A program made the translations under genes and the position numbers. Under the pieces are notes generated by a model. It had not been told where the DNA came from and searched no databases. It saw nothing but the letters and a program-made list of their open reading frames with translations. Of a DNA stretch of 8,653 bases, positions 2,453 through 8,653 are shown piece after piece; positions within the stretch are counted from its first letter, which is position 1, and each line of letters begins with the position of its first letter. Source of the stretch: Paraspadella gotoi (taxonomy: Eukaryota > Animalia > Chaetognatha); NCBI GenBank assembly GCA_051294375.1, contig JBJCIZ010000069.1, positions 1 through 8,653 on the forward strand, written 5' to 3'.

Positions 2453-2460
2453 GGGCGCCA
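2453..2460 (-). other. Candidate primer-binding site TGGCGCCC (tRNA-Lys-like)
   Basis: Matches the first 8 nt of known tRNA-Lys PBS sequences (TGGCGCCCGAAC / TGGCGCCCAACG). It is short and lies 27 nt from the proposed LTR end. Confidence 0.4.
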
Positions 2461-2487
2461 CTCTAACTGGTGGGCTCTGGGCCTAAC

Positions 2488-2819
2488 TGTGTCTCACGTC
2501 TAGTAGAAACCAAAAGGAATGGGAGGAGAGTAAATGTATTTCACAACTGAGGTCTAAACTCTATCCGAAAAATATAAAATGTCCAAAAAAAGGGAGAGAG
2601 AAAGAGGCGGAGAGAGAGAGAGAAGATGGACTGAACCTAAACTTGAACGCGACCCCGAATCCCCGTGAGGAGGATGAGGAGGGAGGAGGAATAGAGAGAG
2701 AAGAGGAGCTGTAGACCCGCGACGTCTACCGGCCTTCGATTCTGGGTTCAACATGCAAATTTATTTATTTTTGATCAGTTATCAAATTAATAAAATAACT
2801 CTTCTCTCGCACTTACACA
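2488..2819 (-). repeat. Candidate LTR (332 bp, TGTGT...ACACA termini)
   Basis: Starts immediately after the PPT. Termini form an inverted repeat (AACTGTGT 2485-2492 / ACACAGTT 2815-2822). Minus-strand AATAAA at ~2759-2768. No second copy in the window; the left end could lie nearer 2465. Confidence 0.5.
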
Positions 2820-2820
2820 G

Positions 2821-2831
2821 TTCCCCCTCTC
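2821..2831 (-). other. Polypurine tract (plus-strand primer)
   Basis: The minus strand reads GAGAGGGGGAA-c-TGTGTAAG: a purine run 1 nt before TG, downstream of pol in the correct orientation. Confidence 0.65.
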
Positions 2832-2965
2832 ACACATTAGGCTTATCTTAACACATTTAAGTGATCTAATCGCCATTAAGGTTAAACTTTTAGGCACAAT
2901 CATTCTCTCCGATCTTTCAATCTATATGGTAGACACCTGCGAATCGATAATGAATCACAGGAGTC

Positions 2966-3247
2966 GTGGTCGTTGTGCCAAATCGGCCCAGGTACCCCTT
3001 TACTGTGACCCTTACCCAATTCGTTGAAGAGATCGGCGAGGGTCTCACGGGTGGGCAGATTGCGGGAATCGCGGTCGGCGCCATTCTTTTTCTCGTTGTC
3101 TTCGCAGTGTTGGCGTGCATTTTCTGTCGCCGCTCTGGATGCCAAGTCCGGGCAGCGGCATTAAATGTCCGCCTCCCCTGCGTTGACGCCGAGGTCCAGG
3201 ATGCCGTCGTTTCCGGATCCTTCGAATTGCAACCTGTTGAGGCGTAA
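2966..3247 (+). CDS. Small single-pass membrane protein (~93 aa visible; true start uncertain)
   Basis: GLTGGQIAGIAVGAILFLVVFAVLACIFCRR is a typical type I/III TM helix followed by Cys and basic stop-transfer residues, in a GC-rich island. There is no in-frame ATG. The start may come via the acceptor CACAG at 2959 or, with one indel, from the ATGs at 2926/2950. Confidence 0.7.
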   Translation: MVVVPNRPRYPFTVTLTQFVEEIGEGLTGGQIAGIAVGAILFLVVFAVLACIFCRRSGCQVRAAALNVRLPCVDAEVQDAVVSGSFELQPVEA

Positions 3248-3296
3248 AACATAAAAAATTTAATATATGAACCCTTAAGCTTAACCTATATCTCTC

Positions 3297-3304
3297 TATA
3301 TAAG
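3297..3304 (+). promoter_or_regulatory. Candidate TATA box for the spliced antisense gene
   Basis: TATATAAG about 70 nt upstream of ATG 3367, between the two + strand genes. Confidence 0.35.
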
Positions 3305-3425
3305 ACAGGGCCTAGGGACCTTTAGGACCCCTTTCTATTGAACAATTGAGGAGGTATAACAATTTAATGGTAGGGAATAGGAGAGCTAAGGATCCCAACT
3401 ACTAATGATACAATAATCCACCCAG

Positions 3426-4143
3426 CTCATCATCTCTCTCGCCGAATCCGGCACACTCCCACCTTGCCGGATGAATGTTCAATGTCCGGATACAACAATC
3501 CGGGAAGAACTCCGCCAGAGCGGCATGGTATGTATCATATGAATGTTTTTTACTCCCAACTTATTTGTAGTTGTATCCTTCTCAAACCTCTCTCCCTACA
3601 GAAAGATGGACAAACGGGACACTTCTCAGTGACCGATACCCAGGGCCACATCATCATCGGGCCCTTCGAAGAGGCTCAGACGCCCGGCGCTACCTCCAAG
3701 AAGTTCGACAAAGTTCTCGAGAACTTCAAGGAGGACTACAAGCGCCAAGCCAGCATCATCGCGGGCGTCTGGGGCCTAATCGGCGCTCTGATCCTGAACA
3801 GTGAGTCCAATTATCCTAATTTCTAAAAAAATCAATATTAGTACACACACGAATTAATAGTAATTCATATGATTAGTATTAAAATAATCAATTGCATAGT
3901 CATGACCATTTTCTATTTCTCTCTTACAGCCTTGATCACCGCCCTTCGTCAATGCCTTCGGAAGAAGGATCCCGACGGCTTCTTCCGGCTGGAAAAGGTC
4001 TACTATGTGAGTATAATAATGATTGAATAACATATATTAATCAATTATACAGTGAAATTTACAAGTGGTAACCCATTCTCTAATTCGTTCTACAGCCACG
4101 GCAAAGACCCGGCACAAACGCCGTGCGCGTCTCCCACGTTTGA
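3426..4143 (+). CDS. Spliced gene for a ~126-142 aa single-pass membrane protein. Exons 3426(or ATG 3471)-3527, 3602-3800, 3930-4006, 4096-4143; possible ATG micro-exon at 3367-3369
   Basis: Donors GTATGT (3528), GTGAGT (3801) and GTGAGT (4007); pyrimidine-rich acceptors ending TACAG at 3601, 3929 and 4095. Phases 0/1/0 join into one open frame: LIISLAESGTLPPCRMNVQCPDTTIREELRQSGM|KDGQTGHFSVTDTQGHIIIGPFEEAQTPGATSKKFDKVLENFKEDYKRQASIIAGVWGLIGALILNT|LITALRQCLRKKDPDGFFRLEKVYY|PRQRPGTNAVRVSHV*. Exons are GC-rich and introns AT-rich. Confidence 0.8.
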
Positions 4144-4190
4144 ACGCCGATTAGAAAAAAACAAAAGACACGCGCAATTCATCATTTATC

Positions 4191-4196
4191 ATTAAA
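4191..4196 (+). terminator. Candidate polyadenylation signal (ATTAAA)
   Basis: Lies 47 nt after the TGA at 4141-4143, in the AT-rich gap where this gene and pol converge. Confidence 0.3.
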
Positions 4197-4406
4197 TTTC
4201 GCCAATATAATCTCATCCATTGAAATTGCATTTAATAATTATTTGTCACATTTATTTAATTAAACAAGTAAAACGATTTGGTATTTTCTCAAACAAAATA
4301 TTCAAAAAAAAAGAATCCAAATAGTCAGCAATTGCAACGAAATACAACGAAGTATCTAGTGAAAATAAGAATACAAAATTCAAAATCCCACATTTACGAT
4401 ATTGTC

Positions 4407-5959
4407 TCATTCGGCGAAAATAAGATGAATTGCATCAATAGCGATCCCTGCATTTGTAGAAGCAGAGCGGCGAGCAGCCAAACGGGTAAGAGGCGGTTCG
4501 CAGGCGGGCATGGCACGGCGGTCCAGCGTTCTCATTTTGTCAACCATTTTGATGAGGCTCTCTCTGGACAAGTTTGAACGAATAAGATGATCTCCAGGGA
4601 ATACTTTAAATTCACCAGAGACTAGAGAATGGCACTTGAATGAATTCGTTGCTATTTTGGCAACTATTTCCCACGAATCTTGATCCACTTTCCTTTGAAT
4701 TTTTCGTGGAGAACCAAGAAAAAACGAAGTCTTCTTCTTCATGACTAAATCTCCAACTTTTAGATGAGATGTAATATCTCTCGGATTTTCGCGTTTCCGG
4801 CGTTGAAGGAACCGGTTCACATCATGGCGCAAAAATGTCATTCTGAAGTCTTCTCCTTGCTTCCAATGTTTCTCTCACACTCTTTGCCGGCGCCGTCACG
4901 CCGCTAGATGGCAGTTCTCCTCCGGGTCCAACAGGTTTTGCAGATGAACGAACAAAAATGGACGTCAGAAGGACTTTTCCAGATAAAATATCTGTACAAT
5001 GTTGAATTGTAAACAACTCTAGCTTTCGCCGACGAGAGAATGAAATGGAAGATGAGGTTCATGTTCTTGTAATTTGAGCATTATTCTCGTAATGAATTGA
5101 TGAATCTCTCTACTTTAGACTGACATCTTGACACATTTGCCAATCCATGTATCAACTCCACTCCATGTTGACTAAGGATATTGGCTGAGGGAGTGTTTTG
5201 ATTTACAAAGAGCATTGTCAGCATGGATGCGACGAGGTAACCACTCCACTCTTGTCTTATCTTCATTAGACAATCCACTAACTTCCTTTGTCTTGGTAGA
5301 TTTTGTAGGATATGCCCATGCATATCTGGAGAAGAGGTCCACAGCACAAAAAATGTACGGAAATGCAGCATCATTGTGAAGGGTCCTGCAAAGTCAATTG
5401 CAACGGAGTTTCCTGGCTCCATGGGTGTCTGCATCCCTCTTCATCTCTGGAACCTTTTTGGTGATTGTTCTGAAGGCAGATTGCACAATTTCTGATGTAT
5501 GTAGAAATCTTCTCTCTCATTCCATGAATGTAGTAACTTTTTTCCCAAAGTTTTAAGGTTCAATTCACTCCAGCATGAGTTGCTGGCAGGATCACGATCC
5601 CAACAACAACATATCAAACCTTGATTGACCGCAGCAAATTTTGTTTCATGAGTCTTACTCAAAAGACGATGAAATTCCATCTCAGACACAACAAGGAGAA
5701 ACTTGATTCCTCCATCAGGGGCTGTCCACAAGCGCAGTAGCACTCCCTGATTACTGATGATGAAGAGACTGCGGTGAGAAAGGAATGCCAAAGTCCCCAT
5801 AGATAAAAGCAAAGCTTCATGTTTATCTGGAACTTCATCTTTTTCTTTCAAATAATCAATTTTTTCACTCACATCAGGCGGCTGTTGCATTTCCAAGATT
5901 TTCTGGAGAACTTTGTCTGCAAAAACTGGAACTTCCTTGGCTTTAATTGGCTCATCCAC
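4407..5959 (-). pseudogene. Integrase: HHCC zinc finger, DD(35)E core, and GPY/F-like C-terminal module
   Basis: H (HETK, 5650), H (THAGVN, 5577) and CAIC (5487-5476). D in VAIDFAGPF (5395), D in IHADNA (5219), E in SKVERF (5110). C-terminal LKVGDLVMKK...WEIVAKIATNSF. Confidence 0.92.
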
Positions 5960-6489
5960 AACTTCGTCAACTTCCTCAGTGTGGCCTGAAGCTACATCTT
6001 TATCTGAGAGTTGAACAATTGAGACTGTCCAAGGGGCAAGAAGACCTTTCCACTTCTTGATTTCACGCTTTCTGCGACGCCTTGTAACTCTACTGTGAGT
6101 AGCACCAATTGAAGAGATGGAATAGCTCCTTTGTCTAATTCCTTCTCTATTAGACTGTCCGGATCCCAGTCATCTGATGAACACTCTACTTTGTCACCGA
6201 CTGCCGACGGAGGGTGTGCCGGATCAGTGGAATCATTTGCCGGAAAATGCGTCCACTCAGTGTCATCCATATCCGGAGTCGGGTCCCGGCTGACATTTCA
6301 ATGTGGGAGACTATTAAGCTTAGACATAGTAGTCCTCTTCTTGCTTTAAAAATTGAACACAATTCATCTGAAATACTTTTATTCAGAAGTGATTCAAGCG
6401 AACTTTTTCTCGCTTTACCATTCAGAATCCTGCCTTGGAGAAACCTTTCTGTCATAAGTAGCCATCTCCTCCATCATTTTCTTCCCATC

Positions 6490-6895
6490 TGCTCACACAA
6501 TCAGCTGGAATTTGCTTAGAGTTCAATAAAAAGAATCTTGAAGTCAAAACTCTGAAGATAAGATAGATTCTTTTCAAAAATGCATCAATCGACTTTGTCC
6601 AGGTTAGCCCATCTTCTGCAACACTTGACTATCAGTGATTATGTAGAATGGTCCGCAGTGAAAGATAGCTAAATCTTTGAACTGTTTCATATAAGAGCCA
6701 AAAACTCTTTATAAAACGTTGGCAAACTTCTTTTTGCTGGAACCAAAGTCTTTGAATAACATTGGACAATGTAGAGTTGCCCTCTTGTCTCTATCAGCGC
6801 CAGCTGCAATCTCTGCTGAAGTTGGAAAAAGCTTTTGCATAATCACAGATCCAATGGCATGCTGAGAGCCATCTGTGAGCACAATCAGCTCATCT
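6490..6895 (-). pseudogene. RNase H domain, Ty3/Gypsy type (frameshifted)
   Basis: LIVLTDGSQHAIGSVIMQ, then PFYIITDSQ (~6652-6626), then IPADCVSR (~6512-6489, equivalent to NxxADALSR). Confidence 0.9.
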
Positions 6896-7019
6896 TCAAG
6901 CTTGGTTGAGGGAACTCTCACCCTCCCAAGTTTTTCATCCAGAAGTACACTTTTTTGCTTTTTCAAATGCTGTTTTGTGATTTCAGTGACTTGAACTTTG
7001 GTCTTTCCTTTTGCTAAAT

Positions 7020-7880
7020 CACGCAATGGCCCAAGTGCTTCACTCAGCTTAGGGTTGCAAGCTAGGAACCAAGAGAAAAAAGCAAGGCTTAGAAATAAGG
7101 TCCTTCCTTGAGTCAGGAAAGGTGAGTTTTAGCAATCTTCTCAATCTTCTCCCCTGACATTCCTTTTGCTCCTTCTGAGACTTCATGCCCGAGAATCCTC
7201 AGTTTGTCCACCCCAATGTCACTCTCTTGGCAGACAAAAAGCAGGTGTATAGGTTGAGCAAATAGCTATGGTCAGAGGTAGATCTGCATCCAGATGTTGC
7301 TTCATGTTCTTGGAGTAGGTAGATGTGGTCATCAATGAAGGGCTTGCATCTTTTTGTGAATGTCAAAACATTCTCGACACCCATTGTTGAGCATACCAGG
7401 ACCAACACTGATCCCCATTGGACATCTGAGGTATCTGAAGAACTTTCCCAGAACAAAGAATCCAGTGAACTTTTTAGATGAATCTTCATCCATCAACAGT
7501 TGATGATAGAATCCGGCAGCATCCAAGTTGGAGAAAAATTGTGTAATCACCACTGGCAATTTCCCTCCTGAACTCTTCCATTTCGGTAGTGGGAAGTGAT
7601 GAGGCATCAGAGCTTGATTCATTTTTCTGTAATCAACGCACATTCGCTCTTGGTGACCTCTCTCTTCTCTGTACAACATATCTGCTCTCCAGAATAATGT
7701 GGATGTTTGACAGCCCAACTATCATCTGAATTTGTCATCTCAGTAATGACTCCTTGTTTGAGAAGCTTGTCAATATGCTGCTTGATAAAGGGAATCTTTG
7801 CGTCAGAGTGTTTTCTCACTTTGTCTTTCATGGGAATGTCTGTTGAAGATTTGAGTTTGATTGGATTCATCCTCACTCCA
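7020..7880 (-). pseudogene. Reverse transcriptase domain (frameshifted)
   Basis: IDKLLKQGVI, RMCVDYRKMNQ...HFPLP, FFSNLDAAGFYHQL, YLRCPMGISVGP, catalytic FIDD (7339-7328), ILGHEVSEG (~7196-7170) and thumb LSEALGPLRDL. Confidence 0.95.
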
Positions 7881-7899
7881 GTGAAAGTTTCAGGTTTTT

Positions 7900-8653
7900 C
7901 TTCATTGTAAAAAGATTAGACTGAAAGACCCAGACCAAAGATCTGACTTCTCCTGATCACTGTCACTAAGATGAGATATTTTGAACTGCTTCAGAAATGC
8001 TTCTTTGTCCTCCCAATTAGTGCAAGTTGCTCCTTTTTGTCTCTCTTTTTCCACATCAACATCAATCTTCAAGAAATCATCTTTCACGAGATTTGCCTTA
8101 CTTGATAGATCAAAATTGACTCCACGACTATGCATGTCAGTTAGCATGTCAGATGACATGTTTGTTTTCCCCTCCATGGAAGAAAATGGAACAGCTTGAT
8201 TTTTCTCATTGACATAAGAAACAGAGATTTCATCTTGAAGTTCAGTCAACTCCTCACCAGAGACTATGTGAAATACAGTAGACTCTGAATCCAAAGGCTC
8301 GTTTTTCTTCATGTTGAACAACCTCACCAAAATTTTTCCTTTCTTCGCAGAACAATTTCTTCTTTTGTTCATTGATAACTGGAATTTTGTAAGTCCTTGA
8401 CTTTCCACAAAACTGATACCGCGGAATCATCATTTTGTCAGTAGGCTCATCATAGAATGATAGAAATGAATGCTTTCCTTGTTGGTTTCCGGTTTTGTAA
8501 GCATTCCACCCATGTGATGCTTCTTGGATGAATGTTGTTTCCTGGTACAACGCATGAGTGTAGAACGCCTGAATCTCCACGTAGACGAGAATCTCGTTAA
8601 AAAAAGATTCAACATTTTTCTTATAGAATTTCGTTCAAAGATCTGACTACCCA
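7900..8653 (-). pseudogene. End of the protease region and protease-RT linker of pol
   Basis: The window edge reads xGSQIF, a weak match to the protease C-terminal ILGxDF motif. YKIPVINE...(KGK/N)FGEV and SHLSDSDQEK resemble Gypsy PR-RT linkers. The catalytic DTG motif is not in the window. Confidence 0.5.

Follow-up and report, generated by a model that had tools for sequence, protein, structure and literature searches.

A three-intron gene antisense to Ty3/gypsy pol, probably element-borne and predicted to encode a small membrane protein, in Paraspadella gotoi

How can spliceosomal introns be kept inside an element that replicates through RNA? The question is raised by a stretch of 8,653 nucleotides from the chaetognath Paraspadella gotoi (the window, meaning the whole stretch analysed), in which a spliced gene, here called gene B, lies on the plus strand beside a Ty3/gypsy pol on the minus strand. 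The answer that we favour with good confidence is that gene B is a three-intron gene antisense to pol, that it is carried by the element, and that its predicted membrane protein likely serves that element. All junction and variant data on gene B come from a single public run of a single study (X1), whose RNA status was guessed by a tool and which is stored as unstranded contigs. X1 contains a fraction of 0.37 of the sampled words from 2800-4300, and two runs of the same study contain nearly none; coverage in runs X2 and X3 was almost limited to simple repeats.

Splicing, reading frame and variation of gene B

The features that concern gene B are the following.

3297..3303, plus: candidate for an internal promoter of gene B (a TATA-like motif), from sequence only
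3370..3425, plus: proposed extra intron with a lone ATG at 3367, unsupported by X1 contigs
3471..3527, plus: coding exon 1, likely start ATG 3471 with the 5' UTR before it; X1 joint at 3527
3528..3601, plus: intron 1, 74 nt, phase 0, GTATGT..CAG; X1 joints 3526/3601 and 3527/3608
3602..3800, plus: exon 2, with an amphipathic stretch and the bulk of the predicted transmembrane (TM) helix
3801..3929, plus: intron 2, 129 nt, phase 1, GTGAGT..CAG; X1 joint 3800/3930, depth 19.7
3930..4006, plus: exon 3, with the end of the TM helix and a basic patch; joints observed at both ends
4007..4095, plus: intron 3, 89 nt, phase 0, GTGAGT..CAG; X1 joints 4006/4096 and 4006/4099
4096..4143, plus: exon 4, ending at the stop TGA 4141-4143
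4191 and 4259, plus: poly(A)-like ATTAAA, 3' of the gene B stop

According to the initial annotation, three introns of 74, 129 and 89 nt join four exons into one frame, so that 3527 meets 3602, 3800 meets 3930 and 4006 meets 4096. Contigs of X1 bear this out, as introns 1, 2 and 3 are each skipped exactly (depth 8.4, 19.7 and 19.2, respectively), all three joints being GT..AG in the plus orientation. Such joints imply a plus-strand pre-mRNA of gene B, and the three introns are real and are spliced in that orientation. In sequence, the donors are strong GT sites and the three acceptors pyrimidine-rich CAG sites, the GC content is 0.26-0.35 in the introns versus 0.55-0.57 in exons 1-3, and removal of the introns leaves a single stop-free frame that runs to TGA 4141-4143. 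When 3426-4143, a region picked after the fact, was put through 2000 dinucleotide shuffles, a single one gave three such serial introns and kept the frame open. The branch-like CTAAT remarked on near 4080 is present 15 nt 5' of acceptor 3, and it is a feature of intron 3 only, as a scan near the acceptors of introns 1 and 2 gave no CTAAT-like motif.

The joined forms might instead be intron-less DNA copies, that is, processed derivatives in a run of DNA rather than spliced RNA, a reading helped by the tag 'RNA?' carried by X1 and by the coverage of all 30 bins. Spliced forms, however, stand beside unspliced ones: introns 1 and 2 are also crossed by unspliced contigs, with intron 2 retained in a contig of depth 6.1, and intron 3 is covered, these retained-intron forms carrying no strand assignment in unstranded contigs. 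Moreover, introns 1 and 3 are missing from two extra contigs (depth 8.2 and 7.0) whose flanking exon letters differ, so that distinct copies lose them at the same GT..AG sites, and a processed copy would itself presuppose earlier splicing of the plus strand. We consider this explanation very improbable. A further joint, 3435/3554 with CT..AC ends, was considered as a minus-strand intron and rejected, as about 110 unaligned letters of a diverged contig may intervene.

A possible fourth intron, which would attach the lone ATG 3367 to the rest of the gene, fared less well. No 3369/3426 joint is among those listed for the X1 contigs, which cross 3370-3425 unspliced and are by nature unable to prove the absence of a joint, and the ATG is altered in a contig that makes up a depth of 21.4 of 38; the fourth intron is unsupported, yet not disproved. 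Because this joint is missing and ATG 3367 varies between copies, a start at ATG 3471, the first in-frame ATG beyond the stop at 3414-3416, is likelier, and the likelier gene B protein is the one of 126 aa from ATG 3471 rather than the product of 142 aa that ATG 3367 and the extra intron would give. A trans-splice acceptor at 3425 was also considered and rejected, there being no loose contig end at this position among those listed.

The exons of gene B are under apparent purifying selection. Among the 40 of 58 X1 variants that were listed, 15 fall in exons from 3426 on, 12 of them at third codon positions; nine are synonymous and six non-synonymous, giving a pN/pS of 0.21 (binomial p=0.003), a pooled value over what may be paralogues, alleles or related species and not a codon-model estimate. 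The same variants are synonymous in 2 of 15 cases in shifted frames. Counted from ATG 3471, nine of 13 are synonymous (p=0.0006), both variants upstream of this ATG being non-synonymous; beyond it, exon 1 has two synonymous changes among three listed, and exon 2 has six of its eight listed variants at third positions. In this pooled form the variants agree with the expected dN/dS below 1 in exons, and none of those listed touches the six splice sites. Three different letters at 3637, and again at 3640, imply several copies, and a contig of ~81% identity carries a pair of compensating 1-nt indels in exon 2.

It has been proposed for plant elements and for non-coding micropia RNAs that antisense RNA acts by double-stranded RNA silencing of the element (PMC7264820), and in gene B the RNA might likewise be what matters, the protein being incidental. 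The synonymous bias in the spliced frame, with shifted frames free of bias, speaks against this idea, as does the fact that gene B and pol do not overlap, and we give it scarcely any credence.

The gene B protein of 126 aa has one hydrophobic 19-mer and is predicted to be a single-pass membrane protein. It had been claimed that the TM helix is completed only across the intron at 3801-3929: splicing does extend the helix, raising the best 19-mer hydropathy from 1.49 (unspliced) to 2.03 (spliced), but the core of the helix lies mostly in exon 2. In an X1 contig of depth 26.5, an acidic residue near the helix start lowers this value from 2.03 to 1.62. About 70 residues precede the helix, the flanking charges are +4/-3 on the N side and +4/-2 on the C side, and an N-out/C-in topology is weakly predicted. 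Four K/R are found among the 15 residues C-terminal to the helix, which is flanked by an amphipathic stretch at either end (moments 0.70-0.71), traits of low specificity. A motif scan found neither a myristoylation motif nor an N-glycan site. With exon 2 as query, no candidate homologue was found among proteins of 82-263 aa, none of 397 pattern hits in metagenome contigs was confirmed, and exons 1-3 had no Pfam match; as these searches, like those for gene A below, used single exons or fragments as queries, gene B is provisionally regarded as an orphan.

The surrounding element and gene A

The element is made up of the following parts, beside which stands a second antisense membrane ORF, gene A.

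4407..8472, minus: Ty3/gypsy pol (linker-RT-RNase H-integrase), with many frameshifts in the window
2954..3247, plus: gene A, antisense single-pass membrane ORF between gene B and the LTR, beside the polypurine tract
2821..2831, minus: putative polypurine tract (PPT), an 11-purine G-rich run
2461..2820, minus: inferred single LTR of ~360 bp, with the PPT on one side and a PBS-like motif on the other
2453..2460, minus: PBS-like 8-mer TGGCGCCC

The order RT-RNase H-integrase with a gypsy-type RT, as found in Ty3/gypsy elements, is present in pol. Profile matches were obtained to RVT_1 (E 3e-4), Integrase_H2C2 (E 6e-7) and rve (E 2e-4), and the solved structure nearest to the RT is that of Ty3 RT, while the RNase H part of this pol, searched by itself, gave no Pfam or PDB match. 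Across several frames, window positions 8472-4428 are colinear with amino acids 325-1747 of P0008 (32-44% identity), an intact PR-RT-RH-IN protein of 1759 aa on an ENA contig of 11,157 nt, with 42% identity in RT; the similarity ends at 8472, short of the protease. P0008 is the sole close relative of this pol among the best 150 of 4269 RT matches at E<=0.001, other named matches (Tanacetum, Dallia) being distant, and no related RT locus was found in metagenome or viral contigs. P0008 marks a distinct gypsy lineage.

Because gap letters outnumber substitutions in X1 contigs compared with the window (21 vs 15 at 4774-5951; 40 vs 14 at 6836-8579), some of the frameshifts in pol would seem to stem from errors in the long-read assembly and not from decay. 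At 4583-5889, X1 joints of depth 15.1 skip 967 and 303 nt of integrase and have no splice-site ends, possibly a deleted derivative. At the far side of pol, 8581-8653 has a high X1 depth (~540 at 8596-8598) and loose ends at 8581, 8621 and 8627, and is possibly an inserted repeat.

The PPT was chosen by its position among 29 minus-strand purine runs of at least 10 nt, and it alone defines the LTR boundary at 2820. The other LTR end is marked independently, as two X1 contigs depart from the window at 2461 with a loose end. The PBS-like 8-mer, which corresponds to the start of tRNA-Lys primer sites, is one of two matches to a list of such motifs, the other lying inside gene A. The LTR so placed ends in CT..AG, not TG..CA, and no second LTR was found within the 8,653-nt window; tRNA genes and Rfam families were likewise not found there. 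An LTR that lies between a PPT and a PBS-like motif suggests two tandem copies with one common LTR, and the PBS at 2460 probably opens the next tandem copy; genes A and B likely both lie inside the element, at the tandem junction with that copy. Past the PBS, within positions 1-2452 of the minus strand, a low-complexity leader of ~2 kb is followed by an ORF from ATG 441 that runs off the window after 147 codons without a Pfam match, perhaps where gag of the next copy begins.

Seven of the nine variants in gene A are synonymous (pN/pS 0.10, p=0.002; 40 of 58 X1 variants listed) versus five of nine in its minus-strand shadow frame, and gene A is under apparent purifying selection. Its helix reaches a 19-mer hydropathy of 3.13 and is followed by cysteines and arginines, and AF2 without an alignment gave a single long helix (mean pLDDT 61.7). 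In the window, the copy of gene A lacks a start codon in frame and seems to be disrupted near 2960. None of seven candidate homologues reached E<=10. Weak Pfam matches below the cut-off, NB (E 1e-4) and TM_ErbB1, were rejected as generic to a helix, and genes A and B were not accepted as paralogues, their comparison reaching only E 4.8.

Genes B and A might be host genes, or a host fragment captured once, around which pieces of the element were inserted, in which case the introns would never have been reverse-transcribed. Their GC3 is host-like (0.71 in gene B and 0.63 in gene A, within 2963-4143, vs 0.37-0.43 in pol, 4407-8423), the window has one LTR only, and none of the X1 contigs listed spans from gene B into pol or the LTR, the linkage coming from the window itself. 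Against this stand the position of the pol frame, which converges on gene B and reaches its C-terminal end at 4407, 260 nt from the gene B stop, the PPT-like tract, LTR end and PBS that come next in matching orientation, and the three alleles at single sites and the relative of ~81% identity, which fit a multi-copy family. A host origin of this kind is quite improbable in our view, and we prefer to regard gene B as element-borne.

Intron survival and antisense genes of other elements

The element-borne reading includes an account of how the introns persist. Read along the pol strand, they have CT..AC ends, in line with the initial statement that antisense introns are not spliced from genomic RNA, and because such ends on the genomic strand are unspliceable, the introns would survive reverse transcription: the genomic RNA would keep them and reverse transcription would copy them. 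A separate plus-strand mRNA would make gene B, most simply from the TATA-like motif at 3297, in which a gap of 1 nt occurs at 3298 in one X1 contig; alternatively, the transcript would start in the LTR and pass through gene A. The spliced mRNA would then yield the single-pass protein of 126 aa in the service of the element. Spliced and unspliced X1 forms together are as expected if the plus-strand mRNA is spliced and the minus-strand RNA keeps its introns. The proposal that antisense orientation lets the element carry a multi-exon gene is strengthened by the splicing, by the exon selection, and by the place of gene B between pol and the inferred PPT/LTR. A bacterial promoter scan of the window stayed at chance level and is irrelevant here.

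An antisense gene in this place is already in print, and antisense placement is a recognised way for an element to keep introns. Like gene B, brtn (Zhao et al. 2011) is an additional antisense gene, and it is reportedly multi-exon. It belongs to Boty-like Ty3/gypsy elements of Botrytis cinerea and Sclerotinia, where it lies antisense in the stretch from pol to the 3' LTR (PMC7264820, PMC8365987). In contrast to brtn, the present locus has two small membrane-protein genes and a pol without a close named relative, the two being likened by layout and not by sequence. Plant aORFs-3R (Grande gene23, RIRE2, Retand, PvRetro13) are likewise antisense and lie between pol and the 3' LTR; they are conserved among copies, and Grande gene23 has its own promoter upstream (PMC7264820). 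Gene B has the position used to recognise aORFs-3R and brtn, antisense to pol and between the pol end (4407) and the PPT/LTR (2831-2461), the latter being inferred. The products of plant aORFs have been described as nuclear or as having TRP28/PMD domains (PMC7264820, PMC11963269, PMC4408406), whereas that of gene B, in the same layout, is predicted to be membrane-bound. The word 'intron' is missing from the Retand/aORF papers.

Spliced antisense protein-coding transcripts are known from retroviruses, namely HBZ of HTLV-1 and APH of HTLV-2/3/4, which start in the 3' LTR and encode bZIP-type or other transcriptional regulators (PMC3185765). They share with gene B a spliced antisense coding transcript in an element replicating through RNA, but the coding sequence of gene B is split by three introns, its candidate promoter is internal and its product is predicted to be a membrane protein. 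Our literature search, with most subscription journals outside its reach, returned no description of a gypsy element with a spliced antisense gene for a membrane protein, and the accessible portions of PMC6431247 and PMC13524379 held nothing on antisense genes. A search for antisense and spliced transcripts was called for in a 2020 review (PMC7264820), and gene B supplies an example, backed by observed junctions, in which an LTR element retains a multi-intron gene by antisense placement, one that standard ORF-based TE annotation would overlook. What sets the present locus apart is that two apparently orphan membrane genes accompany a pol for whose lineage a single close relative was found; without a function, gene B is one more accessory gene of known layout.

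Possible roles of the membrane protein

In MDG1 elements, known from Drosophila, sORF2 encodes a FAST-like single-pass membrane protein on an unspliced LTR-to-LTR transcript, with a myristoylation motif in 4/6 members (PMC11952523). The sORF2 and reovirus FAST proteins and the gene B product are short and single-pass, with an amphipathic stretch on the N-terminal side of the helix and both a basic patch and an amphipathic stretch on its C-terminal side, and the elements that carry sORF2 and gene B are both without a recognisable env. Among the traits used for FAST/sORF2 proteins, gene B has the size of ~100-200 aa with one TM helix in N-out/C-in topology, the topology being weakly predicted, and an amphipathic ectodomain motif with a polybasic patch, a combination of low specificity; it does not have the N-terminal myristoylation motif of most members. 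Gene B further differs from sORF2 in being antisense and spliced, and the likeness is one of architecture. These traits are generic to single-pass proteins, and gene B is not classed as a FAST/sORF2 member.

By this analogy, gene B, with or beside gene A, might be an envelope substitute that moves particles between touching cells, an idea that we regard as tentative and rather unlikely. Still less likely would be the broader scheme of an undescribed Ty3/gypsy lineage in which two separately expressed antisense membrane proteins, one of them from a three-intron gene of ordinary host build, replace the envelope and allow passage between cells, as an independent, spliced counterpart of sORF2. An element-borne gene B could instead have a job other than fusion, such as blocking the re-entry of related elements, anchoring assembly or damping host defence, and this stands at slightly less than an even chance. 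The lack of a myristoylation motif, the long N-terminal part and the modest hydropathy of the helix fit such jobs; regulatory roles have been published for the antisense products of aORFs and HBZ (PMC7264820, PMC3185765), and separate antisense expression decouples gene B from the timing of the genomic RNA. The amphipathic-TM-basic order and the size, on the other hand, match the description of sORF2/FAST. All non-transfer membrane jobs together, though just short of probable, are likelier than envelope-free transfer, which is itself favoured among specific jobs.

If the membrane proteins do mediate spread, envelope-free cell-to-cell transmission would extend beyond the insect MDG1 elements, and a small, directly testable protein would be gained. 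The env of Oikopleura Tor3b/4b, located 3' of pol and with an internal promoter, is unspliced and encodes a furin-cleaved glycoprotein of 60-65 kDa in a retrovirus-like gene order (PMC4402516); it shares with gene B its place 3' of pol, the internal promoter being only a candidate in gene B. Small TM ORF3s have been reported from rotifer elements (PMC5408684).
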